NCBI GenBank assembly: GCA_964394435.1
Contig: CAYMXN010000001.1
Coordinates: forward strand, 43,739 to 107,738
DNA: 64,000 nucleotides
Direction: 5' to 3'
DNA from: an uncultured Candidatus Saccharibacteria bacterium
GTDB taxonomy: Bacteria; Patescibacteriota; Minisyncoccia; UBA6257; 1-14-0-10-44-23
Shown: positions 32,591 through 49,663 of the stretch, piece after piece
Layout: every line of letters starts with the position of its first letter
How positions within the stretch are numbered: position 1 is the first letter of the stretch
The notes under the pieces: model-generated
Seen by the model: the letters and a program-made list of their open reading frames with translations, nothing else
Told to the model about the DNA's origin: nothing
The model's database searches: none
Position numbers and translations under genes: made by a program

Positions 32591-33220
32591 ATGAAACCGA
32601 ATTTTAAATCACTTACTCAATCAAACATTATTCTTGTTGTCGACCCTCAAAAAACGGTCGCGCCCGAGAATCGTGATTTTGTTGACTTGTTTGGTCCCGC
32701 TGATTCTGCTGGCTCGCAGTTTGTAGATGATCCGGTTATTCGCTCAAAATTTATGGTTGTGCCGAAGCTTCAGCTTCGCGTTACTCTTGAAAATGTGCGC
32801 TTGCGCATCGACGATGATTCGAAGGCGCAGCCAGCTCAATCTATCTTGGTTCGTGAAGCTATGCGTGCCTATACAAAGCTCTTTAAGCAGGTTCAGCTTA
32901 CTGCGATCGGCTTTAATTTTGATATTATGTATCGATTTGAAAAAATGATTCCGACGGATTATCTTTTTAAACATTTCGCTGACGAGAAGCTTCTTAAAAA
33001 AGGTACGTTTTTTGATTTTGGTATTCAATTCGCCCTCGATCGTGAAGGGGGAAGGGCTCAAGAGGTTGTGTTTTTGAAGATGCCATCGGCTCTCGAGCTT
33101 GCCGTGCATTACAACTACCATCTTAATGCGCGCGAGCTACCAAAGAGCGAAAAACTTCAGCAGATTTTTGAAAAGGCATATGAACAAGTCGATGAGATTA
33201 TCGAGCATTTAAAGTTCTAA
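32591..33220 (+). CDS. hypothetical cytoplasmic protein (about 209 aa)
   Basis: Internal ATG of ORF 32528..33220; no motif recognised. Confidence 0.4.
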   Translation: MKPNFKSLTQSNIILVVDPQKTVAPENRDFVDLFGPADSAGSQFVDDPVIRSKFMVVPKLQLRVTLENVRLRIDDDSKAQPAQSILVREAMRAYTKLFKQVQLTAIGFNFDIMYRFEKMIPTDYLFKHFADEKLLKKGTFFDFGIQFALDREGGRAQEVVFLKMPSALELAVHYNYHLNARELPKSEKLQQIFEKAYEQVDEIIEHLKF

Positions 33221-33223
33221 TAT

Positions 33224-34684: not shown

Positions 34685-34687
34685 CGT

Positions 34688-35416
34688 ATGAAGCCGGCAG
34701 TTGTTTTTGAAAATCTTAACCTTGGTCTTCATAACGCTGACTTGGCAGCCTCTGCGGAGCGGTTAGCAAAAGGTAAGACATATCGTGATTTGTCGACGAT
34801 TATTTTGTGTCCTACGCGCGGTATGATCCCTGATCGCGTTGTTCAGTCTTGGATGGGTCTTATTAGGCCGATGAACCAAAAAGTTATCGGACCATTATTT
34901 ATTCGTGGGTATGAGGTTGGTGAGGCGTATAATATGGGGATACAAATGGTACTTTCTAATCCCGAGCTTTCGAAGTGGAAGTATATTTTGACCGTGGAAG
35001 AAGATAATATTCCACCTCCCGATGGGTTGATTCGTTTGTATGAGAGTATGGATGATTTTGATGTCGTGGGTGGCTTATATTGGACTAAGGGTGAGGGTGG
35101 TCAACCAATGATTTATGGCGATCCGGCGGTTGAGCCATTTAACTTTATTCCTCAACTGCCTAAGGCGAATACTGTCCAGCCGGCTAATGGGCTCGGTATG
35201 GGTTTTAATTTATGGAAGATTGAGATGTTTAAAGATTCTAGGCTTAAGCAGCCATGGTTTCAGACACTTAATGACTTGTATCCTGGGGAGGGTACGAAAG
35301 TATATACGCAAGATTTGTATTTTTTTGAGCACGCGAGTAAACTTGGATATAAATTTGCCTGTGATACACGCGTAAAGGTTGGGCACTATGACGCGGGCAT
35401 GGATATTGTTTGGTAG
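34688..35416 (+). CDS. putative glycosyltransferase (GT-A fold, GT2-like)
   Basis: ILCPTRG beta1, acidic EEDNIPPPD (DxD-like), VVGGLY, QDLYFFEHASKLGYKF pattern. Confidence 0.45.
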   Translation: MKPAVVFENLNLGLHNADLAASAERLAKGKTYRDLSTIILCPTRGMIPDRVVQSWMGLIRPMNQKVIGPLFIRGYEVGEAYNMGIQMVLSNPELSKWKYILTVEEDNIPPPDGLIRLYESMDDFDVVGGLYWTKGEGGQPMIYGDPAVEPFNFIPQLPKANTVQPANGLGMGFNLWKIEMFKDSRLKQPWFQTLNDLYPGEGTKVYTQDLYFFEHASKLGYKFACDTRVKVGHYDAGMDIVW

Positions 35417-35421
35417 CTTGT

Positions 35422-36387
35422 ATGCTTACAAAACTTTCTTTTCGTGAAAAAGTTTTAATCGCTGTTATTTGTATCATTCTTATTGTATTTTTCTGGGGTC
35501 ACGGCCCAAGGTATGCTCGGCATGAGTATCTTAGGAAAAATGATGAGTTTGGGCTTATTAATCCTTCGATCATCGCAAATATCGGGAAGCACTACATCAT
35601 TAACTTCAAGCCGTTACGTGGCCAGATCGAACAGATTATCGCCCGATATCCGCAAAAAACATTTGTGTATTTTTCGTATTTAAACAATGCTGCGTGGATA
35701 GGTATTAATGAGCGTGATGAGTTTGTTGCCGCCTCGACTATTAAGGTGCCTATCGCGATGTCGCTTTTAAAGGCGGCAGAAGAGGGTAGAATTGATCTTG
35801 CTAGTCGTTATACCCTTCAGCAACTTGACCTTGATGCTGGTTTTGGGGATTTGTATAAAACTGGCGTTGATGCTGATTTTTCTGTTGAAGAGTTGATGCA
35901 GATTATGTTGCGGCAGTCTGATAATACGGCGCTTAATGCTTTAGTTTCGGTATTTGAGCGAATCGGAATCTCTGATCCGCTTGAGGGAGTATATGGTGCT
36001 CTTGGTTGGGAGTTTACGCAGGCGATTCCGGAGTTTGGTCAAGCGATTGATTACTCGAATATCAACCTCAAGACTCTTTCAAACCTATTTTTGGCTTTAT
36101 ATGATGCGAAGTATGTTAACTTGGAGAATTCGCAGAAGATTTTACAGCTTTTGACCGAATCTCCTTTTAACGATCGGATAGCGAGTGGAGTTCCCGAAGA
36201 TGTTCCGGTTGCGCATAAAATCGGTACTGCGAGCGGTAAGGGTACTTTTTCGGATTGTGGAATTGTATATGCTCCAAGTCGGCATTATTTACTTTGCCTT
36301 GGTTCGAGCGGTGCGCGCGAGGAGGTAGCGACTAGATTTATGTCTGAAGTTTCTAAACTGGTTTATAACTATGTAATTAGTCACTAG
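35422..36387 (+). CDS. membrane-anchored class A beta-lactamase-like serine hydrolase
   Basis: N-terminal TM; STIK (SxxK), SDN, KIGT (KTG-like) motifs. Confidence 0.6.
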   Translation: MLTKLSFREKVLIAVICIILIVFFWGHGPRYARHEYLRKNDEFGLINPSIIANIGKHYIINFKPLRGQIEQIIARYPQKTFVYFSYLNNAAWIGINERDEFVAASTIKVPIAMSLLKAAEEGRIDLASRYTLQQLDLDAGFGDLYKTGVDADFSVEELMQIMLRQSDNTALNALVSVFERIGISDPLEGVYGALGWEFTQAIPEFGQAIDYSNINLKTLSNLFLALYDAKYVNLENSQKILQLLTESPFNDRIASGVPEDVPVAHKIGTASGKGTFSDCGIVYAPSRHYLLCLGSSGAREEVATRFMSEVSKLVYNYVISH

Positions 36388-36439
36388 GCGTAACGGTCGA
36401 TCCTAAAGTTTAATTTTAATACCATTATGGATAATTCAT

Positions 36440-36916
36440 ATGAATAAACGATTGCAGTTTTTAGTGTTTGTGTTTTTTGCTTTGCTTGTATCAGGGAGCG
36501 TTGTCTTTGCGGCCGTTAAGCTTGTAACTAATGAACAAAAGATAAAGACGTTAAAAGCAACATTTACTTATCAGGATTTTATCGATGCTCCAGTTGAGGA
36601 GGGGGCGATGGGTTACCTGAAGATTGCCGATTTGCCTGCAAATACGCAGATACTTTCGGCTTTTGTTAAGGTAGTAGATCCATTTCTAAGTATTAATGGC
36701 GAGGGTATGACTGTTGAGCCAAAAATTAAGAGTAACGAAAAAAGTATTGCACACGGAGCTTCTTTGACAGATGATGATAGTTTAAGTGATGGAAGTCTTT
36801 TCTCTGGCTATATCTCAAACGCTGACGAGGAGATTGTTTTGCGGTTTAATCCACAAGAGGCAGATCGTATCGTTGGTGGAAAGGCGAAGCTTTTTGTGAA
36901 CTATATCGAGCATTAG
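36440..36916 (+). CDS. small secreted protein (signal peptide), unknown function
   Basis: Signal peptide MNKRLQFLVFVFFALLVSGSVVFA. Confidence 0.45.
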   Translation: MNKRLQFLVFVFFALLVSGSVVFAAVKLVTNEQKIKTLKATFTYQDFIDAPVEEGAMGYLKIADLPANTQILSAFVKVVDPFLSINGEGMTVEPKIKSNEKSIAHGASLTDDDSLSDGSLFSGYISNADEEIVLRFNPQEADRIVGGKAKLFVNYIEH

Positions 36917-36942
36917 AATTTGTTTTAGTTGTTTTGGTTGGA

Positions 36943-36966
36943 CTACGCCCGCATATGCGGGCGTAG
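36943..36966. terminator. perfect palindromic hairpin ctacgcccgcatatgcgggcgtag (terminator-like)
   Basis: 12-bp stem; weak T-tract after. Confidence 0.4.
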
Positions 36967-37004
36967 TTGTTTGCTGGTGTTATTTCGGATATGATGATGT
37001 ACAT

Positions 37005-37070
37005 ATGAAACTTGATATCGCGTGTGGGTCAGGTAAGTATATAGGGTTAATATTCCCATATGAGAGATGA
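37005..37070 (+). pseudogene. 21-codon remnant duplicating the first 8 codons of the 37998 methyltransferase gene (MKLDIACG...)
   Basis: 37005-37028 is identical (24/24) to 37998-38021; the frame stops at 37068-37070, overlapping the start of the next gene. Confidence 0.6.
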
Positions 37071-37950
37071 TCGTTGGCTTGCTGATAAGAAAGAGATCGA
37101 AAGGGAGTATGGGAAGTGGGTTTCATATGAAATCGCGAATCAAGGGAGTGGCTTTTTTCTGCAAAAACCAACGAATGATTTTGAAACAACTCCTTTTGTA
37201 TTTATTGAACGAATTTTTCGATGTATCTCTGATATTTCAAAAAAATCAATTACGAAGATTACAGCTCTTGATCTAGGTTGTATGGAAGGAGTTGTTTCTC
37301 TTGCATTGGCTAGTTGGGGGATGCGTCGTGTCATTGGGGTTGATGCGCGAGAGTCACATATAGCTAAGGCTTTGTTTGCTAAGGATGTGCTCGGATTGAA
37401 GCGTGTTGATTTTTTTAAACGGGACGTGCGAGCATTACGTTTTGCGCCGGGAGAGTTTGATGTCGTATTAGCACTTGGTATTATTTATCATCTTGATGCG
37501 TCTGATATTTTTCGTCTTCTAAGTGATGCATTCAACTGGACGAACGAGATGCTTATCGTCGACACGCATATTAGTTTCCATCCTCGTGAGTGCGTTGAGT
37601 TTAATGGGCGTATGTATTGGGGTAGTTATTATGATGAGCCACAGGAGATGAGTCTAGATAGTAGTCAGTGCTATTATGCAGCTTCAGTGGGAAATAAGAG
37701 AAGTTTTTGGTTTACGCGCGCTTCACTACTTAATCTGTTGAGTGATATAGGATATACCGCTGTTTATGTGTGTGTGTTTCCTCGGGGTGGCATGGGGCGG
37801 GATAATGATGATCGATTGACTCTTATCGCAACTAAGGTTCCAGCGCTGCGCTCAACGATCTTTAGTCCTTCAAGTCTTGAAACAGTAGCTCGTTTTGAGG
37901 AGCGTGAGTTTGGCATGGTCGTGATTCATCCACTTAATAATCCCTCCTAG
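37060..37950 (+). CDS. class I SAM-dependent methyltransferase
   Basis: Motif I ITALDLGCMEGVVSLALA; post-I DVVLALGIIYHL. Confidence 0.65.
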   Translation: MRDDRWLADKKEIEREYGKWVSYEIANQGSGFFLQKPTNDFETTPFVFIERIFRCISDISKKSITKITALDLGCMEGVVSLALASWGMRRVIGVDARESHIAKALFAKDVLGLKRVDFFKRDVRALRFAPGEFDVVLALGIIYHLDASDIFRLLSDAFNWTNEMLIVDTHISFHPRECVEFNGRMYWGSYYDEPQEMSLDSSQCYYAASVGNKRSFWFTRASLLNLLSDIGYTAVYVCVFPRGGMGRDNDDRLTLIATKVPALRSTIFSPSSLETVARFEEREFGMVVIHPLNNPS

Positions 37951-37997
37951 TGGGTCGTTGGTTTGAGAAATAATTTTGATATGCTACTATCATCGCT

Positions 37998-38507
37998 ATG
38001 AAACTTGATATCGCGTGTGGGCAGAATAAACAAAAAGGGTTTAAAGGGGTAGATATTGCTCCGGGAGAGGGCGTGGATTTTGTTTGGGACCTTGAACAGT
38101 ACCCATGGACGCCTTTTAAAGATAACTCGTGCGATGAGATTGTTATTAGTCATTACTTAGAGCACGTAAAGGACTTCATGAAGTTTATGGATGAGGTCTA
38201 TCGTATCTGTCAAAATGGAGCGATTGTGAGGATTGTCTCGCCGTATTACACTTCGATTCGCGCATGGCAAGACCCAACGCATGTTCGGGCTATTTCTGAA
38301 GCTACTTTTTTGTATACGGATAAAAATTGGCGTACAGCTAACAAGCTTGATCACTATCCTATGAAGTGTAATTTTCAAGTTGTCAATATGGTCACTTTTA
38401 TTAATGAGCCATGGAATGTTAAGAGTGAGGAGGCGAAGCAATTTGCGGCGCGGCACTATTGGAACGTGGTCAGTGATATTCTCGTAGAGCTCAAGGCGAT
38501 TAAGTAA
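37998..38507 (+). CDS. class I SAM-dependent methyltransferase (small, Methyltransf_11/23-like)
   Basis: MKLDIACGQNKQKGFKGVDIAP motif I; CDEIVISHYLEHV. Confidence 0.65.
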   Translation: MKLDIACGQNKQKGFKGVDIAPGEGVDFVWDLEQYPWTPFKDNSCDEIVISHYLEHVKDFMKFMDEVYRICQNGAIVRIVSPYYTSIRAWQDPTHVRAISEATFLYTDKNWRTANKLDHYPMKCNFQVVNMVTFINEPWNVKSEEAKQFAARHYWNVVSDILVELKAIK

Positions 38508-38509
38508 TT

Positions 38510-39040
38510 ATGAATCAGAAGGATCCGATTACTATCGCTTTACGAAAAAAGAAAATTCGCATTTTTTCGTTGCTTATTTTGCTCGGTCTAGTCTTTTGGG
38601 GTTGGGGTGCTCAATTTTATTCTCCGCGTCAGGAGATTGCTCCACTGGCGAGCGTGGGTGGTGATTTTTCGCTCTCTCCACTCTCTCCTGGGTTTGGTTT
38701 TTCCGGACCAGGAGGATATCGAAATCCGTTGCTGGACTATCCTGATCCGGCGCGCATGCGTACCTTTTCTTATCGATTGGGATTGTATACGGATAAAACC
38801 CGGCTACTTATTAAGGATATTTGCGCCGACGAATACTATGCTATTTTAATTTACCGAAAAGGAGATGACTATCGAGTTCAGCCAAATGCTGCTTTGTACA
38901 ATAGTGCTCAATTGTGCGCTTCCGGTAAGCGATTTGTTGTTGAAATAGATTTGATGGGTGTTCTGCGTGATACGCCAGGTTCGTATTATTACTTTGTTGC
39001 TGATCAGGGAAAGGTAGGTGAGTGGCGTAATCCTCGATAG
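38510..39040 (+). CDS. secreted protein sharing C-terminal domain with 30924..32570
   Basis: TM/signal IFSLLILLGLVFWGW; DEYYAILIYRKGDDYRVQPNAALYNSAQLCASG aligns with the 30924 C-terminus. Confidence 0.5.
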   Translation: MNQKDPITIALRKKKIRIFSLLILLGLVFWGWGAQFYSPRQEIAPLASVGGDFSLSPLSPGFGFSGPGGYRNPLLDYPDPARMRTFSYRLGLYTDKTRLLIKDICADEYYAILIYRKGDDYRVQPNAALYNSAQLCASGKRFVVEIDLMGVLRDTPGSYYYFVADQGKVGEWRNPR

Positions 39041-39085
39041 ACTTTTTGTTATCGCGCTATTCGGTTTTCTTGGTATACTTATTCT

Positions 39086-39496
39086 ATGAAGCGGTTTTTG
39101 CATTTTGTTTTTTCCCAATCACCCCTTGTTTTGTTTTTAGTATTATTCGCTTTCCTTTTTGCTCTCATACTTCTTGTTCGACTTACTTTTTTTACCGAAC
39201 AGTGGGTTATAGTAGTCCAGAAAAATGGAAGTGGACTCGTGGGGCATCTTACCGACAAGGGTGATTTTGTCCGTCTTTCTGATGTGTATGTGCTTAAAAA
39301 GCAATCTTTACCGCCTCAAGAAAGCTGGACTTCAAGTTTTATTCTCCGGGCTGATATCGATCCTGGTTTTAGCATTGAGCGATTTGATCTTGATAGCGTA
39401 CTAATTAGTCGTTCAGACATTGCATCTATTGTTCCAGTTTCTTCGGACTCACTTATCGTTAAGCGAATTGATCAAATTCTCTATTTAAGCGAGTAG
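39086..39496 (+). CDS. small membrane-anchored protein
   Basis: TM LVLFLVLFAFLFALILLV. Confidence 0.4.
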   Translation: MKRFLHFVFSQSPLVLFLVLFAFLFALILLVRLTFFTEQWVIVVQKNGSGLVGHLTDKGDFVRLSDVYVLKKQSLPPQESWTSSFILRADIDPGFSIERFDLDSVLISRSDIASIVPVSSDSLIVKRIDQILYLSE

Positions 39497-39498
39497 CT

Positions 39499-42400
39499 AT
39501 GAGTAATACAAAGACTTTTTTGTTCTACATATTGTTCGCTTTTGGCCTACTAGTTTCTTTTCCGTCTTCGGCAGCGGCAGCGATTTCATTAGTTCAATCC
39601 AATTCGACCTATCCCGGTGGTACCGGTCCGACCGGGCTCGCGTTTAGTTCCAATAATACTGCGGGAAATCTTATCGTGGTTGGGGTGCAGGGGGCTAATA
39701 ACTCGGCTGACCCGACGATTACTGATACTCGGGGTAATACGTATGTAAAAGTTGGTTCGGTTCACGGCGGAAGCGGCACTGCGTATTCGTATTTGTATTA
39801 TGCGAAGAATATTGCGGCTGGAGCGAACACAGTTACGGTTACGTTGCCGAATGGAAATGACCTTGGGTTTCATATTTCCGAGTGGAGTGGCGTAGATACT
39901 ACGTCGCCATTTAATGCTTCTTCGAGCGATGTTGCTACTTCTTCAGTTACTGTTTGGTCGACTACTAACCTTACGACAACTGCGGCTGACACGGTATTGA
40001 TAGCGTTTACAGGTACCGAAAATTCGGCCGAGACATTTACCGCTGGAACAAATTTTACTAAGCTAACCGAGCAGACTTCGCACTCTTCGATGGTACAGTA
40101 TCGCATCGTTTCTTCGGCTGGTACGTATCGTGCGACTGCTACTGTAAGCAACGCAGATAACGCGTGGGTGATGATTATGGGTGCGTTTAAGGCTGCGAAT
40201 ACAATTACTCCTACTAAGGTTGTTTTTAATCCATTTTCAGCGCGGTCAAAAACGTTCTTTTTAGACCCTCCTGCCTTTAATAGTATTAGCGGATACACTT
40301 CTTCGACTTCATTTAAGGAGCTTGCGGCAGGTGGTCAGCCGGCTGATGGTTTTTCTTCATCGACGAGTTATAAGCCGTGTGCCGGCCAGTTATGTACTTT
40401 TTTCTTGACTAATGACCCTAATCCGGCCAGCATCGCTTATCTTACTGGTTATCGGTGGTACTCAAATGCAGATGCAGTTACTACCGGATCTACTCTAGCT
40501 GCTACTAATGCTACGACGACCGCTCCAGCGCAAGGCACCCCGCTTCGCTTAAGGGCTGTTTTGCATATGCCAGTTGATTACTCAATCGGACCAACATCTT
40601 CAACTCTTCCCGTCTCTGGCATTAATAACACAGTTACTGGAGCGACAGCGTGGACGAATACGAATAATGTAACGAGTAGCGATAACTCATACGCAACGGT
40701 CGTACTTCCAAATGCTACATTGCCTAGTAATTATATTGAGGCGAAGAATTTTGGTTTTAGTTTGCCGGCGAGTTCAACGATTACCGGTATTTATGTTGAG
40801 GTTGATCGCAAAGACGATGGCTCAAAATTGAAAGATGCGTTTGTTTCTATCTTTAAGACCGACGGTTCGCCAAATCTTGGTACTGCGAGTACTTCGTTCT
40901 GGACCAGTACCGAGCAAACAGCAACGTATGGTGGTCAGTACGATCTCTGGAGCACGAGTTTTACCGCGGCTGATATTAATAGTCCTGATTTTGGTTTTGG
41001 TATTGGAGTATGGGGCGATTCAGTGGCTTGTGCTGGAGGATGTACCGCTTCAGTTGATGCGATTCGTGTCACCGTTTACTATCAGCCAGAAAATTTAAAG
41101 TTGCAGTACGCGGCTAAGTCGGGAACATGCGATACAGCTTTTTCAGGAGAGACGTATGTGGATGTGGCGACAAGTAGTGGGGCAATTCGTTTTTATAACA
41201 ATACAACTCCTAGCGATAATGATACGATTACTGCTTCTTCGAGTGATCCGACGCACGGCACTGATACTGTGGTTGCCCAGACGTATCAAGAATCAAATAA
41301 TTTTGGCGTAACGAGTACTGTTCCTGCGGGTAATGATGGACTTTGGGATTTTTCACTAGTTGATTATAGTGCGACAGCAAATACTGACTATTGTTTTCGA
41401 GTTGTTTCGAGTAGTGGGGCCACTTCGACGCCTGACTATGTTCCTGAATTTACCACTGCCGCAGCCGGTGCGGGTATAACTATCTCGGGAACTGTGTATT
41501 CAGATGCTGGAATTACAACAACTACTTCGTCCGTATCGCTTTCGATTAACGGTGGCACAAAAACAACCGTTTCTACTAATGGTAGCGGAGTCTTTACTTT
41601 TTCGAGCGTGACTACACCCAACGCTGCTGATGTGATTACTGTTTGGATGGACAATAACGGCGGAGGAAATGGAACGGGGGCGACTGTTACTCGTTATAGT
41701 GGCAGCGGTGATCTTACTGGGTTGGATATCTATAGGAGTCGAATGATTGTTCGACATGAGGATGCTGGGCCAATTATTAACACTGATATTGATGCGTGTA
41801 CAAAGACACTTGGAGCTGGTTGTGCAGATAGTGATATTCATTTCGATGTTTCGGGTGGTGCGCTGACGGTTGATAGTGATTGGGGTTTGTACGTTTGGGG
41901 AGGAGATACCTTTACTCCCGGAGGGGCGGTGACGCTTACTGCTGGTGCTGCGTCTTCGACTCCGGGCGGAGATTTGACCTGGGGTTCTTCATCTTCGACG
42001 TTAAGTATGTCGACTAACGCGCTTTCGGTGGGGGGCGATTGGCGCAATGATGTCGGTGGAACTGCTACGATAACGAGTAGTGCGGTTACGTTTACGGCTA
42101 CTCAACCGGGAATGGTGATTAATAGTGGGAACAAGAACTTTGGGAGTGTGACGTTTAATGGTGTAGGTGGAACTTGGTCGGCGTCAACCAGTCAAATGGT
42201 AATTACGGGAAGTACTGGGCTTACGATGACCGCGGGGACACTTAATAATGTGATGGGTTCGGCACCAATAACTGTAAGTGGTAATGGAAACGTAGTTGGG
42301 AGCGGAACTGGAGATGGTGTTATTAGTCTTACCTCGAGTAAGTTTATTTTCCGGCCGGGAATTTTGGTGTCGAGGAATTTTGCGTCGGGGAATACGGTTA

Positions 42401-44073
42401 ACTGGTCGTTTTACGATCTTGAATTTAACGGATCTAACGCGGGAGGAGCGTCATTTCAAAACAGCAGCGCTGCGAGCACCACCATTACTGTTTCAAACGT
42501 CTTAACGATTGGTTCTTCGACTGATTCTGGTGCGACTACGTTTGCCGCGGGCAGTTCGACTTTTGTACTTTCTGGTACGACCGGTACGCCGTTTGTAATT
42601 ACATCTAGTCCAGCTGCGACGTTTACGAGCGCTTCTTCGACATTCCAATTTTCCGGAAACTATGCGAGTGGTAATACGCAGATTCCGGGCGTTGGTTATT
42701 ACAAGTTGGTTACTAATAACGCTTCAGAGACGTATAACATTACCGGAAATGCGAGCACCTCGGACAGCTTAACTGTTACTGCCGGCACATTTGATATCGC
42801 AACGTCGAGTTTTGTTATTGGAGACGGACTAACAGTTTCTTCTGGGGCTACATTTACTGGTTCGAATAATGTCACGCTAACTGTAGCAACGAGCACTGCT
42901 TCATTTTTAGGGACGACTAACTTTACCGGTGGCACATTTTCGTTGTTCGCCCGAAATAGCGACAAGACGATTGATCTTGGGAGTGCGAGCGCAAGCACAA
43001 CCCTTAATATTATGACGATAGACTCGGTTGGTATTAGTCCGACCGTTACGTTTAGCGGTACCGGTGGTGGTTTGCGTACGCTTGGCGGACTATCGATTGG
43101 CTCAATTGGTATTGTTACGCTGGCGGTTACTACTTCGGCGCCGTTTACGATTGAAGGTAATTTTAATAATACGGTAAATGGTACGTTTAACGCTTCTTCG
43201 AGTGTAGCGCTTACCTTTAAGGGGAACTTTCTTTCGGATGGAACACTGACTACCGCGAGTAGTACGTTTATCTTTACCGGTTCGTCGGGGACGGCGACAA
43301 TTGGCGGTGCTGCTGCGTTTACATTTTATAATTTGAGCTTACTCGCTCCTACGGCAACTCGAACGTATCAGTTTACGAGCGGTAAGACGTATTATGTGAA
43401 TGGTGCGCTGAATATCGCCGGAACGAGTAGCTCGGTTAAGGCGGTTATTAGTGCGTCAACTGGTAGTGTGCAGTGGCTTATTAATCACCAGGGAACTGAA
43501 AACGTACAGTTTGCCAACATTATTGACTCTGGCTGTGATGCGTTGAGTACTAATATCAGTGTGATGTCGGCTGATAACCTTGATAATGGAAATAACGGTA
43601 CGTGTTGGCTATTTCAGACGTTAGCAATGACCCTAAGCACCACGACCATTTCATTGCCACTCACTAGTGGTAATACGTGGACAACTACCGCGAGTAACAC
43701 GCTCACCGTCACTTCTACGGTCGAGTCTGGATATAACGTAACTGCTTTTGCTTCGGGCTTATTAACCTCTGGGTTAAATACTATCAGTGATTGGCCGAGC
43801 AGTTATTCGGCACCAACAACATGGGCGGGTACGTGTAGTGGTTCGAGCCAGTGTGGATTTGGCTATAACACCGATGATGCTGATTTAACACAATTTTCAG
43901 GAAGTAAGTACGCGGCGTTTAGTAGTAGTACTCCCGGAGATATTATTGCTACTAAATCAACTAGTGCGCGTGGTGATCAAACAACTATTACGTATCGTGT
44001 TTCGGTTCCAACAAATCAAGCCGCGGGTACGTATACTAATAGTTTGAATTTTGTTTTAACACAGCAATTTTAA
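39499..44073 (+). CDS. giant (1524 aa) secreted Thr/Ser/Gly/Ala/Asn-rich surface protein with conserved about 130-aa C-terminal domain ending ...YRVSVPTNQAAGTYTNSLNFVLTQQF
   Basis: Signal peptide MSNTKTFLFYILFAFGLLVSFPSSAAAA; composition; C-terminal domain homologous to that of 45357..46610. Confidence 0.6.
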   Translation: MSNTKTFLFYILFAFGLLVSFPSSAAAAISLVQSNSTYPGGTGPTGLAFSSNNTAGNLIVVGVQGANNSADPTITDTRGNTYVKVGSVHGGSGTAYSYLYYAKNIAAGANTVTVTLPNGNDLGFHISEWSGVDTTSPFNASSSDVATSSVTVWSTTNLTTTAADTVLIAFTGTENSAETFTAGTNFTKLTEQTSHSSMVQYRIVSSAGTYRATATVSNADNAWVMIMGAFKAANTITPTKVVFNPFSARSKTFFLDPPAFNSISGYTSSTSFKELAAGGQPADGFSSSTSYKPCAGQLCTFFLTNDPNPASIAYLTGYRWYSNADAVTTGSTLAATNATTTAPAQGTPLRLRAVLHMPVDYSIGPTSSTLPVSGINNTVTGATAWTNTNNVTSSDNSYATVVLPNATLPSNYIEAKNFGFSLPASSTITGIYVEVDRKDDGSKLKDAFVSIFKTDGSPNLGTASTSFWTSTEQTATYGGQYDLWSTSFTAADINSPDFGFGIGVWGDSVACAGGCTASVDAIRVTVYYQPENLKLQYAAKSGTCDTAFSGETYVDVATSSGAIRFYNNTTPSDNDTITASSSDPTHGTDTVVAQTYQESNNFGVTSTVPAGNDGLWDFSLVDYSATANTDYCFRVVSSSGATSTPDYVPEFTTAAAGAGITISGTVYSDAGITTTTSSVSLSINGGTKTTVSTNGSGVFTFSSVTTPNAADVITVWMDNNGGGNGTGATVTRYSGSGDLTGLDIYRSRMIVRHEDAGPIINTDIDACTKTLGAGCADSDIHFDVSGGALTVDSDWGLYVWGGDTFTPGGAVTLTAGAASSTPGGDLTWGSSSSTLSMSTNALSVGGDWRNDVGGTATITSSAVTFTATQPGMVINSGNKNFGSVTFNGVGGTWSASTSQMVITGSTGLTMTAGTLNNVMGSAPITVSGNGNVVGSGTGDGVISLTSSKFIFRPGILVSRNFASGNTVNWSFYDLEFNGSNAGGASFQNSSAASTTITVSNVLTIGSSTDSGATTFAAGSSTFVLSGTTGTPFVITSSPAATFTSASSTFQFSGNYASGNTQIPGVGYYKLVTNNASETYNITGNASTSDSLTVTAGTFDIATSSFVIGDGLTVSSGATFTGSNNVTLTVATSTASFLGTTNFTGGTFSLFARNSDKTIDLGSASASTTLNIMTIDSVGISPTVTFSGTGGGLRTLGGLSIGSIGIVTLAVTTSAPFTIEGNFNNTVNGTFNASSSVALTFKGNFLSDGTLTTASSTFIFTGSSGTATIGGAAAFTFYNLSLLAPTATRTYQFTSGKTYYVNGALNIAGTSSSVKAVISASTGSVQWLINHQGTENVQFANIIDSGCDALSTNISVMSADNLDNGNNGTCWLFQTLAMTLSTTTISLPLTSGNTWTTTASNTLTVTSTVESGYNVTAFASGLLTSGLNTISDWPSSYSAPTTWAGTCSGSSQCGFGYNTDDADLTQFSGSKYAAFSSSTPGDIIATKSTSARGDQTTITYRVSVPTNQAAGTYTNSLNFVLTQQF

Positions 44074-44077
44074 CTTT

Positions 44078-45193
44078 ATGCTTAAGAATTCTCGAAAAAC
44101 TATTTACTTAATGCTTGCCTTGGTTGCTTTTATTTTTCGCTTGCCAACACCAGCTCTAGCTGAAGGATTGCAATTGTCAGTAAGTAAAGGTATTTTTGCT
44201 CTTGAGGTTTTGCCGGGGATCGCCCACGAGGATATGATTGGCGTGATCAATACTTCGGCTAGTCAGCCGTTGCCAGTTGAGGTGCAGATGTCGATGTGGA
44301 ATTTGAAATCTAATGCAGATGAGCTCGAATTTGTTTCGGTTGATGATGAGCTGAATGCGACGAAGTGGTTTTCGCTCGTTTCTCCAAAAGGGGGAGTTAG
44401 TAGACTTTCGGGTACGCGCTTTATTATTCCCGCTGATGGGTATCGTGATTTACGTTTTAGGATTCTACCCCCACAGTCTGCTCCGCTTGGAAGTTATCTT
44501 GTGGCGATGCGCTTAAAAGTTGCTGCTCCTGATTATTATTTTGCCGAAGGTGGAACGCGTCTGTATCCGGAAATTGACGTACTCTTTTTTATCAATGTAA
44601 AAGATCTTAATCTTTCTGGTTCGAGTCAGCGATACACGGCGCAGATTTCTTCATTTAGCGCAAAAGACGACAATACGATTGGAGCGCTTTCGCTGCTTGT
44701 TTCAAAGGCGAGCGCTGGAGTATTTGAGGATATTGTAAACCAATATATCGCAACTATTCGTAATACCGGTTTGTATTATTTTAAGATGAAGGGCAGTATC
44801 GAGGTGAAAAATATGTTTGGGAGAGTTGTAAAGACTATCGATTTGCCGAATAGGTACTTAATTCCAAATCGAACTCGTTCGCTTGAGATTGGTATCGAGG
44901 AGGACGCCAATGCTTCTCGGGGGATATTTTCTTCATTTGGGCGATTTTTTGCTGATCATTTTTATTTCGGTCCATATACCGCAACGTTGCTTTTGCAGGT
45001 TCCGGTTAACTCGATTGACGATACTCCCGATGCTAACTCGTTTGTTCGTGAGTCGGTGCGTTTTTGGGTGTTTCCTTGGAAATTGCTCTTGTTGGTTGTT
45101 GGGTTTGTTTTCGCAATCCGCTTCTTCTGGAAACGGGGAGGAGTGTTACGCATCAAGCGAGCGTTTTTGACGCTTATCGGAAAGGCAAAGTAG
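44078..45193 (+). CDS. CscA-like (DUF916/DUF3324-like architecture) secreted protein with C-terminal TM anchor and basic tail; partner of the giant protein
   Basis: Signal peptide; two beta-rich domains; FWVFPWKLLLLVVGFVFAIRFFWKRGG; paralog of 46616..47551. Confidence 0.45.
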   Translation: MLKNSRKTIYLMLALVAFIFRLPTPALAEGLQLSVSKGIFALEVLPGIAHEDMIGVINTSASQPLPVEVQMSMWNLKSNADELEFVSVDDELNATKWFSLVSPKGGVSRLSGTRFIIPADGYRDLRFRILPPQSAPLGSYLVAMRLKVAAPDYYFAEGGTRLYPEIDVLFFINVKDLNLSGSSQRYTAQISSFSAKDDNTIGALSLLVSKASAGVFEDIVNQYIATIRNTGLYYFKMKGSIEVKNMFGRVVKTIDLPNRYLIPNRTRSLEIGIEEDANASRGIFSSFGRFFADHFYFGPYTATLLLQVPVNSIDDTPDANSFVRESVRFWVFPWKLLLLVVGFVFAIRFFWKRGGVLRIKRAFLTLIGKAK

Positions 45194-45356
45194 CAAGCTA
45201 TATTTGACCATTTCAAATATTTATTGACTTATCCACAGTTTTGATTTGTTTTGTAAAGTAGGGATGTGAGCTTTCGTGTTATACTAAGTGTAAATAAATC
45301 GTGTGGATTTATTTTGTAGCTTTTATTACTAATTATTAATTAATTCTTTGACTATC

Positions 45357-46610
45357 ATGAAACGATTTTTAAGCCATTTGATGGGGGCGACCGGAAGTGC
45401 GACTGTCGCCACGACGCTCATCATCTCACTGCTTGTTTCGGCGAGCGGTTTTTACTTATTATCTCGCTCGGCGAGTGCGACTGCGCTTACTTCGGTCAAA
45501 GATACGCTTTCGACCTCCGCTCCAGCTACAGCGGCTAACCACACGATTCAGTTTATTACCAAGAGTAACATCGCTAACGGCGATACGATTAAGATTGAGT
45601 TTGATACACTCGGTACAACTGACCAATTTACGATTAACTCACTTCTCTTTAGTGATATCGACTTAAAGCATAACAACCAGGGTAGCTGTTCGGGCACTCT
45701 TGCTAACCAGACTATTTCTTCTGCTTTTACTACAGCATCAAGTACTTTTACGGTTGCTATTTCGAGTTCAACTGATGATATTACCTTTACGGCGACTTCG
45801 ACGGCAGCTACGTATATCCCGTCAGGTGCGTGCGTTATTATCACCATCGGAACAAACTCAACGTATCAATCAACTGGAGTAAACCAGATTGTAAATCCAG
45901 CTAAGACTGCGGCTGCTGGTGTTGCTGATGTCAACGACGTAAAGATTACGTTTACCGGTACTCCAGCTGCTGATAGTGGCTCGGCTCTAGTGGCGACTAT
46001 CGACCAAGTTACGGTCTCGGTTACCGTTGACTCGAGTCTCTCGTTCTCTATTTCTGGTGTGACTGGTGCGAGCTGTACACAAGGTACTGGTACCCAGGTG
46101 ACTACAACTTCGACTACTGTACCGTTTGGTTCTTCGTTGGTTGCTGTAAACACTTTCTATAGAGGTTGTCAGGACTTAGTGGTGAGCACAAACGCTTCGA
46201 GTGGATACGCGATCACTGCAGAAGAGAATACGAGCTTGCTTTCCGGTTCGATCACGTTAGACGACACTCGTTGCGATTTCGCCTCGGCGGAGTGTAGCGA
46301 GGTTATTGGTGCTGCATCTACTACAGCTTGGGCGACCGCAACTAACAATGGTTTTGGCTATACTTGCAGCGGCTCTTCTTGTAACTCTGCTTTTGCTACA
46401 GCAACCGAGTACAATCAGTTCTCGTGCACCGGATCTGATGCGCAATGCAATCCGGGTTCGGGAGGTGAGGCCGCACAGACACCAATTTCCACTTCGACTC
46501 CAGTAAGTGCTGATACCTCACGTATCGTCTATCGTCTCTCGGTAAGTGGTACGCAGCCAGCTGGTTCGTACAGCAACACCATTACCTATATCGCGACGCC
46601 GACCTTCTAA
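45357..46610 (+). CDS. Thr/Ser-rich surface protein (about 417 aa) sharing the C-terminal domain of the giant protein (...YRLSVSGTQPAGSYSNTITYIATPTF)
   Basis: Signal anchor; SGYAITA, TAWAT, GFGY, SGSSC, QFSC motifs align with the 39499 C-terminus; ATG 45357 (TTG 45348 alternative). Confidence 0.55.
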   Translation: MKRFLSHLMGATGSATVATTLIISLLVSASGFYLLSRSASATALTSVKDTLSTSAPATAANHTIQFITKSNIANGDTIKIEFDTLGTTDQFTINSLLFSDIDLKHNNQGSCSGTLANQTISSAFTTASSTFTVAISSSTDDITFTATSTAATYIPSGACVIITIGTNSTYQSTGVNQIVNPAKTAAAGVADVNDVKITFTGTPAADSGSALVATIDQVTVSVTVDSSLSFSISGVTGASCTQGTGTQVTTTSTTVPFGSSLVAVNTFYRGCQDLVVSTNASSGYAITAEENTSLLSGSITLDDTRCDFASAECSEVIGAASTTAWATATNNGFGYTCSGSSCNSAFATATEYNQFSCTGSDAQCNPGSGGEAAQTPISTSTPVSADTSRIVYRLSVSGTQPAGSYSNTITYIATPTF

Positions 46611-46615
46611 CAGTT

Positions 46616-47551
46616 ATGAACAAGCGCCTATCATTTAAAGCTTTCGCGATAGTATCGCTTCTCCTTTTGGGTGCCTTTATGTACGCACCAAAGGCCTCTG
46701 CTATTACGATTTCGCCACTTAACTTTGAGCTTAGTGGCAATCCGGGTGATAAGATTTCGAATGTGCTGCGTATCTACAACGATCAGGATGTTCCTATTGG
46801 TGTAAGCGTAAGCGCTCAAAACTTTACCGCTTCTGATGAAGAGGGGCGCGTCAAAATTGACCTTGATAATACCCGGGAAAATTCGTACTCATTTGCGAGC
46901 TGGATTAAGCTGTCACCTGAAGAGTTAGTAATTGAGCCAAAGTCTTTTAAGGCGATCGAGTTTACGGTTTCAGTTCCACTTAATGCAGAGCCAGGAGGAC
47001 ACTACGCCTCTATTTTAGCTGCTGTTGGGGCTACTTCAGAGACTGGTGCGACTGCGATTTCACAGCGTATTGGAGCGCTTCTTCTTTTGAATGTGAGTGG
47101 TGAGATTAAAGAGGAGATGTATCTAAAAGAGTTTTCGGTTCCGAATTATTCTGAATATGGTCCAGTTACGCTCGTAAGTCGTTTTGAAAATACCGGCAGC
47201 GTTCACTTAAAGCCTCGTGGGTTTATTACGATAACAAACATTTTCAATCAGGAGGTTGGTCGCTTCGACTTACCACAGAGCAACGTTCTCCCGGGAACGA
47301 TTCGTCGTATCGAAACTGCTTGGGGTCAGAAGTATTTGTTTGGACGGTATCAGGCGAATTTAACGACGGTGTATGGATCGACGAATGATCCAATCACGAG
47401 CGTGGTTCAGTTTTGGGTCATCCCATGGAAAGAGACTGCAGCCGTCGGATTTGCCGGCTTGATTGTACTCATCTTCTTGATTCGCCGCCGCCGCCGTATC
47501 GGCCTTGCGCTACGCGTCTTGTTTGGCTCTGAAATGCCGAAGCAGCGTTAG
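46616..47551 (+). CDS. CscA-like membrane-anchored partner protein, paralog of 44078..45193
   Basis: Signal peptide; FASWIKLSP, FWVIPWK, C-terminal TM plus RRRRR tail; collinear similarity with 44078..45193. Confidence 0.45.
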   Translation: MNKRLSFKAFAIVSLLLLGAFMYAPKASAITISPLNFELSGNPGDKISNVLRIYNDQDVPIGVSVSAQNFTASDEEGRVKIDLDNTRENSYSFASWIKLSPEELVIEPKSFKAIEFTVSVPLNAEPGGHYASILAAVGATSETGATAISQRIGALLLLNVSGEIKEEMYLKEFSVPNYSEYGPVTLVSRFENTGSVHLKPRGFITITNIFNQEVGRFDLPQSNVLPGTIRRIETAWGQKYLFGRYQANLTTVYGSTNDPITSVVQFWVIPWKETAAVGFAGLIVLIFLIRRRRRIGLALRVLFGSEMPKQR

Positions 47552-47570
47552 CGACTTATTATTTCTTTTC

Positions 47571-48509
47571 ATGCAGCATTTTCAAAGGATTGGTCGCGCG
47601 TCCGTATATTTTGCTCTGCTTATTCTTTGTATTCCGTTTTTTGGGTCTGCCGCAGAGACTCGGGATATTGGCGTTACGATTACCATTGGCGAAACCGCTA
47701 CGACAACACCTTCTGGGGGTGGTGGCGGGGGTGGAGGAGGTACGTTTGGTACGGTAACCGCTGTTACATTAAGCGGATACGTGTATCCGGGTGCGATTAT
47801 TACCTATTTGGATAATGGTGTTGTTATTGGGACTGGTGTTGCTGATAGTAGTGGGGTATTTTTGAAATCGTTTTCTGTTCCTTCAGGACTTTCGCAATTT
47901 GGTCTTTGGGCGCGCGATACGATGGATTTTATTTCACCAACTACGAATATCGGTATATATCTACAACCGTATGTTCCGGTTACTATTTCGCAGATTGTAA
48001 TCGGCCCGACTATTACTGGGAAGACTAATCTTGCGGTTGGCGAGGATCAGCTTTTGTATGGAAGTGGTTACCCTGGGGCTCAAATTAATTTGTTTAATAT
48101 TTTTGCCCCAAGTCAGACTCCGTATACAGCGATGGTGAATGCGGCCGGTCGTTGGCAGATTCGTATTCCTGCTGCTTCGTTGTTTGCTGGATCGTATACG
48201 TTTCAGGCGATGATGCAGGCTGGACTAGGAGGGAGTACGGGGTATTCGCAGGGATTTACTTTTATTGTCGGGAAGAGCGGAGAGTTGGTTCCTGGGCAGC
48301 CGCCGGTTAGCGGTGGAGGCAAGAGGTGTTTTGGTTCGGATTTTAATGGTGATGGGCGGGTTAATATTCAAGACTTCTCAATCTTTCTTTTTTACTGGCA
48401 CAAGGATTATTCACAGCGACCTCCGGCCAATGCCTGCGTAGATCGCAATGGTGATCGCAAGGTTGATATTAAGGATTTTTCGATCGTTATGCATGACTGG
48501 ACTAAGTAA
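47571..48509 (+). CDS. secreted Gly-rich protein with C-terminal type-I dockerin domain
   Basis: Signal peptide; poly-Gly; tandem Ca-binding repeats DFNGDGRVNIQDFSIF / DRNGDRKVDIKDFSIV. Confidence 0.7.
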   Translation: MQHFQRIGRASVYFALLILCIPFFGSAAETRDIGVTITIGETATTTPSGGGGGGGGGTFGTVTAVTLSGYVYPGAIITYLDNGVVIGTGVADSSGVFLKSFSVPSGLSQFGLWARDTMDFISPTTNIGIYLQPYVPVTISQIVIGPTITGKTNLAVGEDQLLYGSGYPGAQINLFNIFAPSQTPYTAMVNAAGRWQIRIPAASLFAGSYTFQAMMQAGLGGSTGYSQGFTFIVGKSGELVPGQPPVSGGGKRCFGSDFNGDGRVNIQDFSIFLFYWHKDYSQRPPANACVDRNGDRKVDIKDFSIVMHDWTK

Positions 48510-48523
48510 TATATACTCATAGT

Positions 48524-49663
48524 ATGAAGCGCAATATTCTATTTATCTCGTTGTTCTTTGTTGGTTTGTTTGGATTTTGCGCAAACAGCGTGTATGCGGC
48601 TTCTCTGTTTCTTTATCCGCAACATATCGACTTAGTTGAGGGTGAGAGTGCGAGCGTTGAGATTCGGCTTTCAACCGACGGAAAACAGATGAATGCTGCG
48701 GAAATCCATGGTGTTCTTACTGGGCTGGCGGCGAGTATTCGTAGTATTGATGATTCGCAGACTATTATTAAGCTCTTTCTTGATCGGCCTTCGACGGCGC
48801 GCAATGAGTTTGAACTCATTGGTGGCGTTCCGAATGGATTTGCGGGTGATGGTATTTTGGGAAGACTTACCGTTCGCGGTTTAGCTAAAGGAACTGCTTC
48901 GATTAGTTTTTTGCCTTCTTCGCAGGTACTTGAGAATGACGGGAATGGGACTGCGCTTCCGTTGTCTTTATCGGGTGCGACTATCGCTGTTTCTGCGCGT
49001 CCACAGGATTATATTGTCATCACGTCGCAGTCTCATCCGGATCAAGATATGTGGTATCAGCGTCGCTCAGTTCAGCTTCATTGGGATCTTAAGCCTGGGG
49101 CGAGCTATAGCTATTTAGTGAGTAGAGATATTACTGCGGTTCCTGATAATATGGCTGATAAGCCAGAGGGTGAGTTGCTTTGGTTAGGTGATATCAAATT
49201 GAGTGATATTCAGGATGGTATTACGTATTTTTCAGTTAAGGAGGTCGGGGGGAGTGTGGTGTCGAGGTATCGCTTGATGCAAGATAGTTCACTGCCGGAG
49301 TTTTCTGACGCGACTATTCGCCCAGGAATTATTGAGACGGGTGGGAAGGAGTTTCTGACTTTTTCTGCTACTGATGCAGTCTCGGGTATCGACCGATTTG
49401 AAGTGAAGGTTGATGGTCGTGATTTTGAAAGCGTGACATCGCCATATATTTTAGGTTCTGGGTACCGCACACTTATCTTGCGGGCGTACGATCGAGCGGG
49501 TAATTATGCTGAAAAAACGTTTACTGCTGCTCGCTTTGTGGTTATCTCTTGGTTCTCGGTTGTCATTCTCTTGCTCATCTTGCTTATCTTGGCGCTGCTG
49601 TATATTTTATTCCACTGGCTTAGCGATCGTCGTGAGGAGCGGAAAAAGCATATAAAAGTGTAG
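48524..49663 (+). CDS. membrane-anchored cohesin-domain protein
   Basis: Signal peptide; N-terminal about 140-aa module (LYPQHIDLVEGESASVEIRLS...ILGRLTVRGLAKGTASISF...GATIAVS) with cohesin-like pattern; C-terminal TM VVISWFSVVILLLILLILALLYILF and basic tail. Confidence 0.55.
   Translation: MKRNILFISLFFVGLFGFCANSVYAASLFLYPQHIDLVEGESASVEIRLSTDGKQMNAAEIHGVLTGLAASIRSIDDSQTIIKLFLDRPSTARNEFELIGGVPNGFAGDGILGRLTVRGLAKGTASISFLPSSQVLENDGNGTALPLSLSGATIAVSARPQDYIVITSQSHPDQDMWYQRRSVQLHWDLKPGASYSYLVSRDITAVPDNMADKPEGELLWLGDIKLSDIQDGITYFSVKEVGGSVVSRYRLMQDSSLPEFSDATIRPGIIETGGKEFLTFSATDAVSGIDRFEVKVDGRDFESVTSPYILGSGYRTLILRAYDRAGNYAEKTFTAARFVVISWFSVVILLLILLILALLYILFHWLSDRREERKKHIKV

Follow-up and report, generated by a model that had tools for sequence, protein, structure and literature searches.

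Two tandem modules, each a Thr/Ser-rich surface protein followed by a membrane-anchored partner, raise the question of whether the partners hold these proteins permanently at the cell or hand them on into a fibre. The modules belong to a chromosomal locus of a CPR bacterium (Patescibacteria, Parcubacteria-type), found in a stretch of 64,000 nucleotides analysed as a whole (the window). A large part of bacterial diversity falls within CPR, whose members live attached to hosts by organelles that are barely known. The locus probably encodes an usher-less pilus that is built by donor-strand exchange and is a divergent relative of the Pam pilus.

The unit comprises six genes, P1-C1-P2-C2-D-E (positions 39499–49663), and recurs across CPR (Table 1). 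The initial annotation gave four ORFs with correct coordinates and lengths but closed the region at 47551, which was too short: C2 is followed by two more genes, reaching 49663, that keep synteny with the module in most of the 80 related loci. The tandem two-module layout that it described is real, and the P-C-P-C order is kept across CPR loci in dozens of genomes. C1 homologues were found in 48 of the 80 loci. The upstream genes at 35410–39496 were excluded from the system because they lack synteny in the same 80 loci; unlike D and E, the upstream neighbours of the locus are not conserved. Pfam/NCBIfam scans of 38 window ORFs detected no usher, sortase or LPXTG protein (TIGR01167 appeared at E 2.9 only), and the Pfam scan of these ORFs detected no ATP synthase. 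A CorA gene lies at 13702–14610, 25 kb from the locus.

Table 1. Genes of the locus and sequence features within them (window coordinates)
Feature	Position	Strand	Length or residues	Description	Source
P1	39499..44073	+	1524 aa		ORF list
P1 CTD	43621..44070	+	aa ~1375-1524	Pam-pilin-type incomplete Ig-like domain, C-terminal Phe at end	
C1	44078..45193	+	371 aa		ORF list
P2	45357..46610	+	417 aa	Alternative TTG start at 45348	ORF list
P2 linker, candidate donor strand	45999..46037	+	aa ~215-227	IDQVTVSVTVDSS	
P2 C-terminal acceptor domain (putative)	46038..46607	+	aa 228-417		NF058581, BLASTP, HMM, hhalign
C2	46616..47551	+	311 aa		ORF list
D	47571..48509	+		Dockerin protein	
D mature N-terminal strand, candidate donor	47664..47693	+		DIGVTITIGE	
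E	48524..49663	+		Cohesin-like module and TM anchor	

A pilin profile search matched 4419 representative clusters at E ≤ 1e-3. Records of the system that bear a lineage name are CPR (Uhr-, Specht-, Colwell-, Veblen-, Moranii- and Beckwithbacteria, with Paceibacterota, Parcubacteria, Microgenomates, CPR2 and WWE3 as further named carriers); some auto-labelled TPA MAGs bear doubtful non-CPR names, such as Gammaproteobacteria. Some partner genes have no detectable upstream pilin and sit beside glycosyltransferase genes.

P1 carries a signal peptide and is a secreted protein rich in Thr and Ser (30% Ser plus Thr), with 12 cysteines in close pairs. Its N-terminal 1370 aa have no Pfam or NCBIfam match and have homologues in 15 related loci; first-position subunits in other CPR loci range from ~370 to >2700 aa. 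P2 is ~38 kDa when mature, with 32% Ser plus Thr and 10 cysteines, again in close pairs. P1 and P2 have a true C-terminal domain (CTD) of ~150 aa in common, as had been noticed from the sequence. BLASTP aligns them over 146 aa (28% identity, E 2e-5) and reaches both C-termini exactly, an HMM built from P2 homologues recovers P1 residues ~1392–1524 at E 4.5e-12, and hhalign gives 99.5% (E 7e-23) between the CTDs of the pilins and those of the giants. The domain stands at the extreme C-terminus in 63/63 family ORFs. It is next to impossible that the likeness is a Thr/Ser compositional artefact joining four unrelated surface genes: both proteins are ~30% Ser plus Thr and the pairwise E value is only 2e-5, but the family HMM matched no other window ORF, the P2 fold is modelled confidently, and the family HMM, hhalign and the synteny kept in dozens of genomes together rule out a low-complexity origin.

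The initial annotation suggested that this CTD may be a new anchoring domain; it is instead probably a relative of the Pam pilin CTD. Both window CTDs match essentially the whole NF058581 profile, at 28–30 bits against a cutoff of 55: aa 251–417 of P2 cover positions 2–148 of 148 (E 5.1e-7, 29.9 bits), and the P1 CTD covers positions 5–148 (E 2.3e-6, 27.8 bits). The profile is also matched by 82 of 107 P2-family homologues, the best at 5.3e-11. Pam is a CPR pilus with pilins PamA and PamB and chaperones PamC and PamD; in Ca. Mycosynbacter amalyticus, the Pam pilin CTD is an incomplete Ig fold that takes a neighbour's donor strand in the filament (Troman et al., bioRxiv 10.64898/2026.03.03.709456). 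PDB sequence and profile searches with P1, P2, a family alignment and a ~210-aa pilin class returned nothing relevant.

A WxL identity for the CTD was also considered. The canonical motif is lacking, in line with the first reading, and its W positions are Y or F. PF13731 (WxL) matched 0/107 P2-family members at E ≤ 0.1. In hhalign, two WxL alignments were compared with three CPR CTD classes in local, global and relaxed modes, giving probabilities of 1.7–2% (P 0.024–0.03; controls at 0.017–0.47). A claim of membership in the WxL domain family was rejected as not demonstrated, since nothing significant appeared in any mode. One of three HMMs, that of the giant CTD, scored ≥8 bits on 18% of WxL proteins versus 0/1023 decoys, and its signal is a local C-terminal hairpin. 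With a WxL protein of E. innesii as query, no WxL chain was detected in 9i25, which like 9i1y is a structure of EfmWxLIP1.

BLASTP aligns the partners C1 and C2 over ~300 aa at E 2e-12, which makes them paralogues. C1 starts 4 nt after P1 and has a signal peptide, a C-terminal TM at 327–350 with a basic tail, and no Cys; C2 also lacks Cys, in contrast to the paired cysteines of P1 and P2. The described arrangement, in which each CTD protein is followed by a paralogous partner with two beta-domains, is upheld; hydropathy supports the signal peptide, the C-terminal TM and the basic tail in both partners, and the motifs quoted for the partners (W96, FWV.PWK) are invariant or near-invariant family columns. 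The AF2 model of C2 (pLDDT 91.4) has two beta-sandwich domains and a C-terminal helix at 271–302. Partners have the PapD/FimC/CfaA chaperone fold, and their most conserved segment is a G1-like strand preceded by a flexible loop.

C1 and C2 are also true relatives of CscA/WxLIP of Gram-positive gut bacteria. The likeness to DUF916/DUF3324 proteins that the architecture had suggested is borne out by PF06030, the PDB profile match and hhalign. PF06030 matches C2 at E 1.9e-5 and 25.1 bits, just under the 27.3 gathering cutoff, and is matched by 76/86 partner-family members. The best PDB sequence match of the partner-family profile is EfmWxLIP1, across both domains, and hhalign aligns the family with seven Firmicutes WxLIPs at 97.5% over 256 columns (E 5.6e-12). 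DUF3324 alone is weak, with one match among 86 partners and 4% in hhalign of domain 2.

C1 and C2 are proposed to be membrane-anchored chaperones paired with P1 and P2, respectively. Since the CTD is akin to that of Pam pilins and the partners have a chaperone fold, transient chaperoning followed by polymerisation is more likely than permanent docking. The competing arrangement is a static Csc/WxL-type complex, in which P1 and P2 would not polymerise, each would be held permanently by its own TM partner through CTD docking, and the N-termini would act as adhesins. True WxLIP homology of the partners fits such a complex, as does one dedicated partner per CTD protein in nearly abutting genes (gaps 4–5 nt). 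The large and small subunits mirror the large and small WxL proteins found with one DUF916 protein (PMC9772566), and WxLIP has been called a stabilising binder, not a chaperone (PMC10599100). A static complex is nevertheless quite unlikely: the relatives of the CTD in Pam pilins are proven filament subunits, and the partners are as close to genuine pilus chaperones as other PapD-like proteins are.

The P2 linker bears on the same choice. The AF2 model of P2 (pLDDT 90.8) has an N-terminal beta-sandwich of 9–10 strands, an unpaired linker and the CTD; 10 strands precede aa 214. The linker is conserved (family consensus V.VSATVDES) and is unpaired in the monomer, with no DSSP strand between E206–214 and E228–234. 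In the ~210-aa class, which consists of the linker strand and CTD only, the strand forms the mature N-terminus; hhalign matches this class to the P2 CTD at 94.5% (E 8e-8). A conserved unpaired linker in both P2 and the small class has no role in a 1:1 complex. By analogy with the Pam cryo-EM structures, it would be the donor strand, and P2 is proposed to be the shaft subunit. The giants differ: a linker-like strand upstream of the CTD scored ≥12 bits in 0/15 giants versus 31/50 ordinary pilins, with a PSSM that was trained on P2-type pilins and that a divergent P1 donor strand would escape. A giant without a donor strand suits the static complex; for a pilus, it suggests that P1 is a tip adhesin with an acceptor-only pilin domain.

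D is secreted and comprises a conserved mature N-terminal beta-strand, a Gly/Pro spacer, Ig-like Big_6 and Big_13 domains and a C-terminal dockerin. Its start is better placed at ATG 47571 than at TTG 47505. Dockerin_1 matches D at E 7e-6 and 26.5 bits (cutoff 22.9) and all 34 D-family members; Big_6 is also matched. E has a signal peptide, a cohesin-like N-terminal module, more beta-domains (OmpL47-type barrel), a TM at 332–369 and a basic tail. It matches NF047446 at E 4.9e-10. Cohesin PF00963 is matched by 8 of 34 E-family members (best 5.2e-7), the window's own E not among them, and the top PDB profile matches of the family are the cohesin modules 5aoz and 5m2o (E 0.045–0.1). Judged by their sequences, D and E are a putative dockerin/cohesin pair. 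D is proposed to be a donor-only base or terminator subunit, and E a membrane anchor that would bind the dockerin of D.

Cohesin-dockerin pairs are widespread outside cellulosomes, and D and E could be an independent surface system of this kind; a pilus, if any, would then be anchored or ended otherwise, for example by a chaperone-capped last subunit. Partner genes that lack a detectable pilin upstream and lie near glycosyltransferase genes agree with such independence. So do the weak absolute scores of the D strand on the linker PSSM (2.3 bits for the window's D; ≥12 in only 4/34), and absolute scoring was set aside as too weak to serve as sole evidence, only the positional test being informative. 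In that test, 18/34 members have their most linker-like site in the N-terminal I.VS.TV strand versus 0.97 expected, with a P-value that is inflated because the D-family sequences are related. This coincidence with the linker motif tells against independence, as does the neighbourhood: D stands right after C2 in 75/80 loci and E comes next in 54/80, while upstream neighbours vary. An independent D/E system is unlikely. The donor-like strand of D also argues against the static complex.

Domain homologies, folds, gene order and conservation are what the analysis shows; polymerisation, polarity, P1 at the tip and anchoring through D and E are inferred. For the pilus, the following assembly is proposed. 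All six proteins would leave the cytoplasm via Sec, and C1 and C2 would stay in the cytoplasmic membrane by their C-terminal helix. Each would cap the incomplete Ig-like CTD of its own subunit with a lent beta-strand, as PapD and FimC do, paralleling the predicted action of WxLIP on WxL proteins. As an acceptor without a donor strand, P1 would start the fibre and so end at its tip, displaying ~1370 aa rich in Thr and Ser that would serve for adhesion or reach. The linker strand of each P2 would enter the CTD of the preceding subunit, extending the shaft. D, with a donor-like N-terminal strand and no acceptor, would therefore end growth at the base, and its dockerin would bind the cohesin-like module of membrane-anchored E, fixing the fibre to the cell.

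Compared with chaperone-usher pili, the locus lacks an usher among the 38 window ORFs and belongs to a cell without an outer membrane, its putative chaperones are membrane-anchored, and its candidate donor strand is an interdomain linker that becomes an N-terminal extension only in the small class. No sequence homology with those pili is detectable. The TLP-1a/b fibrils from pond water (CryoSeek) are tubular, with subunit n+4 donating the strand (PMC11494351; PDB 9ikk). TLP-1 fibrils were rejected as CPR Pam-like pili, as no sequence-level link was found and the reference protein belongs to a member of the Flavobacteriales.

The closest known system is the Pam pilus, of which the locus is probably a divergent relative. 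Besides the probably related pilin CTD, P2 has the PamB architecture of sandwich, linker and CTD at ~38 kDa mature, PamB being known here by description and P2 by its AF2 model. PamA and PamB are reported to have paired cysteines; PamC and PamD have a PapD-like two-domain fold with a TM helix (bioRxiv 10.64898/2026.03.03.709456), compared here by description. Both features recur at the locus. In both systems every part is Sec-exported without an usher, two chaperones serve two pilin classes, and records with credible lineage names are confined to CPR. The differences are of lineage and layout. The preprint stresses Saccharimonadia and Microgenomatia, whereas the named relatives of the locus are Parcubacteria-type lineages. 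Each pilin gene precedes its chaperone gene, an order that differs from the pam operon of M. amalyticus. A giant that lacks the linker stands first (1524 aa; >2700 aa elsewhere). PamR, an RbmA-like TM-anchored terminator with an N-terminal strand (bioRxiv 10.64898/2026.03.03.709456), is missing, with the dockerin protein and the cohesin-TM protein in its place. The window also lacks the ATP synthase/CorB/MFS neighbourhood. The locus, with the 4419 clusters matched by the pilin profile, indicates that Pam-type pili reach well past the lineages stressed so far. The new features that it suggests are tip subunits of giant size, anchoring by cohesin and dockerin, and a solid link, in sequence and structure, from the pilus chaperones to the WxLIP/CscA of enterococci, listeriae and lactobacilli. 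The preprint has no mention of WxL, DUF916, dockerin or cohesin, nor of the link between pilus chaperones and WxLIP/CscA (bioRxiv 10.64898/2026.03.03.709456).

WxL/Csc clusters of Lactobacillales and Bacillales pair large and small WxL proteins with WxLIP, i.e. CscA (DUF916, DUF3324 and a TM) (PMC10599100, PMC9772566). They differ from the locus in phylum and in the LPXTG protein (CscD) and sortase that it lacks, and the literature describes WxL proteins as binding peptidoglycan and not as subunits that polymerise. The likenesses are extensive. WxLIP homology of the partner covers both domains; each partner type combines a signal peptide with two Ig-like domains and a TM helix; and the partner gene lies directly downstream of the subunit gene. 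Large multidomain and small domain-only subunits occur in both, always with the common domain at the extreme C-terminus. The motifs FG, G[WY].[LIV].[VT] and Y..T.T[WYFL]....P are collinear, a pXO1 WxL protein has Y for the second W, and in AF2 predictions the WxL sandwich is completed by a strand of WxLIP. Tentatively, Pam-type pili and WxL/Csc could have branched from a single ancient system of monoderms, in which a membrane-anchored PapD-like chaperone (WxLIP/CscA = PamC/D) strand-complements a C-terminal incomplete Ig domain and the WxL domain is the Firmicute pilin CTD. On this view a WxL protein would be more than a plain binder of peptidoglycan: it would be a subunit served by a chaperone and perhaps capable of donor-strand exchange. 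The fibre of Parcubacteria would have giant adhesins at its tip and a cohesin-dockerin tie to the cell. The chaperone-WxLIP link offers a concrete mechanism hypothesis for WxL/Csc clusters, to which roles in virulence and in colonising the gut have been ascribed. It is also relevant to how donor-strand assembly with the help of chaperones arose in bacteria without an outer membrane.

The six genes P1-C1-P2-C2-D-E probably form a donor-strand pilus locus of the Pam type, named after the CPR pilus of Ca. Mycosynbacter amalyticus. The first four, two large subunits (P1 and P2) each followed by a membrane-anchored, chaperone-like partner (C1 and C2), have exactly the positions and lengths given in the initial annotation, and gaps of 4–5 nt separate each subunit from its partner. 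The C-terminal domain (CTD) that P1 and P2 were said to share is real: BLASTP aligns them at E = 2e-5 with 28% identity over 146 aa, reaching both C-termini. An HMM of P2 homologues matches P1 residues ~1392–1524 (E = 4.5e-12) and no further ORF in the window. Ser and Thr make up 30–32% of P1 and P2, and both contain Cys residues in close pairs. The partners C1 and C2 are paralogues, as had been proposed (E = 2e-12); each begins with a signal sequence, ends in a TM segment and a basic tail, and lacks Cys.

Located features of the window
Feature	Coordinates	Strand	Description
tRNA	6342-6413	+	Rfam match
tRNA	20696-20766	-	Rfam match
ATPase pair	27550-30884		TrwB/TraG-like, 462 and 626 aa
Three ORFs	30900-35416		no Pfam match
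P1	39499-44073	+	ORF, 1524 aa
C1	44078-45193	+	ORF, 371 aa
P2	45357-46610	+	ORF, 417 aa
C2	46616-47551	+	ORF, 311 aa
D	47571-48509		Big_6/Big_13 Ig-like domains and dockerin
E	48524-49663		cohesin-like N-terminal module, OmpL47-type domain and C-terminal TM anchor

P1 and P2 have no match in Pfam. The NCBIfam model NF058581 ("CPR_Pam_pilin_C") matches both CTDs over nearly all of its 148 positions (E = 5.1e-7 and 2.3e-6; 28–30 bits, under the 55-bit cutoff) and 82 of 107 P2 homologues (best 5.3e-11). This model stems from a 2026 preprint in which the pilins PamA and PamB were identified by cryo-EM of Ca. Mycosynbacter amalyticus filaments, and PamC and PamD of the same operon were described as PapD/FimC-like chaperones with a C-terminal TM helix (bioRxiv 10.64898/2026.03.03.709456). 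Mature P2 has a mass of ~38 kDa, versus 38.7 kDa for PamB. The AF2 model of P2 (pLDDT 90.8) has 10 strands to residue 214 and the CTD at 228–417. Between them, segment 215–227 (IDQVTVSVTVDSS) is conserved (family consensus V.VSATVDES) and unpaired in the monomer. A pilin profile matched 4419 representative clusters at E ≤ 1e-3 in a search of 1.84 billion proteins. In one 3077-aa representative the pilin N-terminal sandwich domain (profile positions 42–207) is repeated in tandem, with about ten copies, and pilin N-terminal domains therefore serve also as repeat modules in giant proteins.

The partners are related to the WxLIP/CscA (DUF916/DUF3324) proteins of Firmicutes. PF06030 (WxLIP_PGBD, DUF916) matches C2 at E = 1.9e-5, slightly below gathering score, and 76 of 86 partner-family members. 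By hhalign, the family aligns with WxLIPs from seven plasmid-borne Firmicutes WxL loci at 97.5% probability (E = 5.6e-12, 256 columns); domain 1 alone reaches 84% (E = 7.6e-6). The initial annotation was thus right to call the partners "CscA-like"; their fold is also that of the chaperones. The final strand of domain 1 (aa 151–160, consensus VG.LLLL.V.G, L155 invariant) is preceded by a lower-confidence loop. It resembles both the G1 donor strand of PapD and the WxLIP hairpin that, in an AF2 prediction, completes the WxL sandwich (PMC10599100), a study that gave WxLIP no chaperone interpretation.

A scan in which each GTDB species was represented by one genome, with the partner alignment as query, gave 80 loci. 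Lineage-named records among them are CPR: Uhr-, Specht-, Colwell-, Veblen-, Moranii- and Beckwithbacteria, Paceibacterota, Parcubacteria, Microgenomates, CPR2 and WWE3. The nearest genome (CAZFZO010000021.1) has 98% aa identity to the window and is labelled "uncultured Candidatus Saccharibacteria"; further TPA MAG loci are labelled Gammaproteobacteria or Pseudomonadales. These automatic labels, that of the nearest genome included, look unreliable because the gene content is that of Parcubacteria-type CPR, to which every named relative also belongs. The P-C-P-C order is recurrent, and 63 of 63 subunits carry the CTD at their very C-terminal end. First-position subunits range from ~370 aa to >2700 aa and have a CTD family that shares homology with the P2 CTD (99.5%, E = 7e-23). 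A third class of ~210 aa (94.5%, E = 8e-8) consists of a signal anchor, a linker strand and the CTD, nothing else, and in this parallels the small WxL proteins of Firmicutes. Members of this class (L028:9348-9974, L032:1358-1996, L074:9302-9940 and five more) end in ...G.Y.DTITLT...P and have a partner gene directly downstream. Upstream of P1, related loci do not share conserved genes. At seven loci (L043, L049, L070, L073, L075–L077) a glycosyltransferase-like gene (~470 aa, C-terminal ...DFSWK...Y..LY) precedes a partner-type gene with no pilin gene there; these may be orphan partners or reflect a link to glycosylation. PamA is reported to carry a post-translational modification.

Homologues of D directly follow C2 in 75 of the 80 loci, and 54 have an E homologue. 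Dockerin_1 matches all 34 D members. PF00963 matches 8 of 34 E members (best 5.2e-7); a profile search of the PDB with E likewise puts cohesins at the top. D begins at TTG 47505 in the ORF list, overlapping C2; the alternative start, ATG 47571, yields a canonical signal peptide (MQHFQRIGRASVYFALLILCIPFFGSAA/ETRD) and is more likely. Mature D starts with a conserved strand, I.VS.TV, and a Pro/Gly/Glu spacer comes next.

A PSSM trained on linker strands from both P2-type and small pilins was used to examine subunit polarity. Of 50 ordinary pilins, 31 had a linker-like strand 150–270 aa from the C-terminus (median score 19.7), as against none of 15 giant P1-type subunits (median -4.7); small first-position subunits were without one too. 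P1 is therefore a distinct and probably acceptor-only class, like PamT, FimH or PapG, and the tip is its slightly favoured position. In D, the I.VS.TV strand is the top PSSM site of the entire protein in 18 of 34 members versus 0.97 expected, with low absolute scores and related sequences. This suggests that D gives a strand to the last pilin and itself lacks a groove. D would then terminate the fibre and attach it to E by dockerin-cohesin binding; an anchoring role for the pair is tentative. We infer all of these assembly steps.

Comparison of the CTD with the WxL family, raised by the initial annotation, gave no support for membership: PF13731 matches no CTD family member, and hhalign gives 1.7–2% (P = 0.024–0.03), at the level of unrelated control pairs (P = 0.017–0.47). 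The motifs of the two domains are collinear, as judged by eye.

Collinear motifs of the WxL domain and the window CTD
Motif	WxL	Window CTD
1	LSIDFAS..FG	LSFSISG..VPFG
2	VQVTD.RG..GW.L.V	L.VSTNA..GY.VT
3	L.VPGS...A..Y.TTLTW.L.D.P	YRLSVSG.Q.AG.YSNTITYIATPTF

With filters off, the giant-CTD HMM scores at least 8 bits on 18% of 127 WxL proteins, a non-independent set, versus 0 of 1023 reversed, shuffled or unrelated decoys. These matches always pair the last ~45 residues of each; the remaining two CTD HMMs show no enrichment on WxL proteins. Remote homology is possible, and shared ancestry of the two domains is conceivable but somewhat doubtful. On B. anthracis pXO1 (L005:4154-5915), a WxL-annotated protein has Y in place of W in the second motif (…KLTYSIVTGP); a DUF916/DUF3324 protein directly follows, and CpaF/VirB11-family ATPase genes lie a few kb upstream.

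The flanks encode housekeeping functions: MraW, PBP, Mur ligase, DnaB, CysRS, CorA, DnaK/J, SecDF, a class A beta-lactamase-like protein, two methyltransferases, EF-P, MnmA, ComEC, aaRS, NDK, LepA, MurB, HPF, SecA and two T4SS-coupling-like ATPases. No usher, sortase or ATP synthase was found among the window ORFs scanned. The 626-aa member of the adjoining type IV secretion coupling-protein ATPases carries a treble-clef zinc finger, and the three ORFs after the pair lack Pfam matches. The two tRNAs are the only Rfam matches in the window. The window has positive GC skew along its whole length, and almost all genes are on the + strand, consistent with a single replichore arm.

The locus most likely works like the Pam pilus and belongs to the Pam superfamily. 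It differs from Pam in lineage, in gene order, in CTD scores under threshold, in its proposed giant tip subunits and in the missing ATP synthase neighbourhood. The D/E pair replaces PamR, whose proposed role would here be divided between two proteins. WxL, DUF916, Csc, dockerin, cohesin, Parcubacteria and adhesin do not occur in the Pam preprint (bioRxiv 10.64898/2026.03.03.709456). Homology of CPR pilus-chaperone-like proteins to Firmicutes WxLIP/CscA is a firm new point; more speculatively, WxL clusters could be the Firmicute counterpart of these pili.
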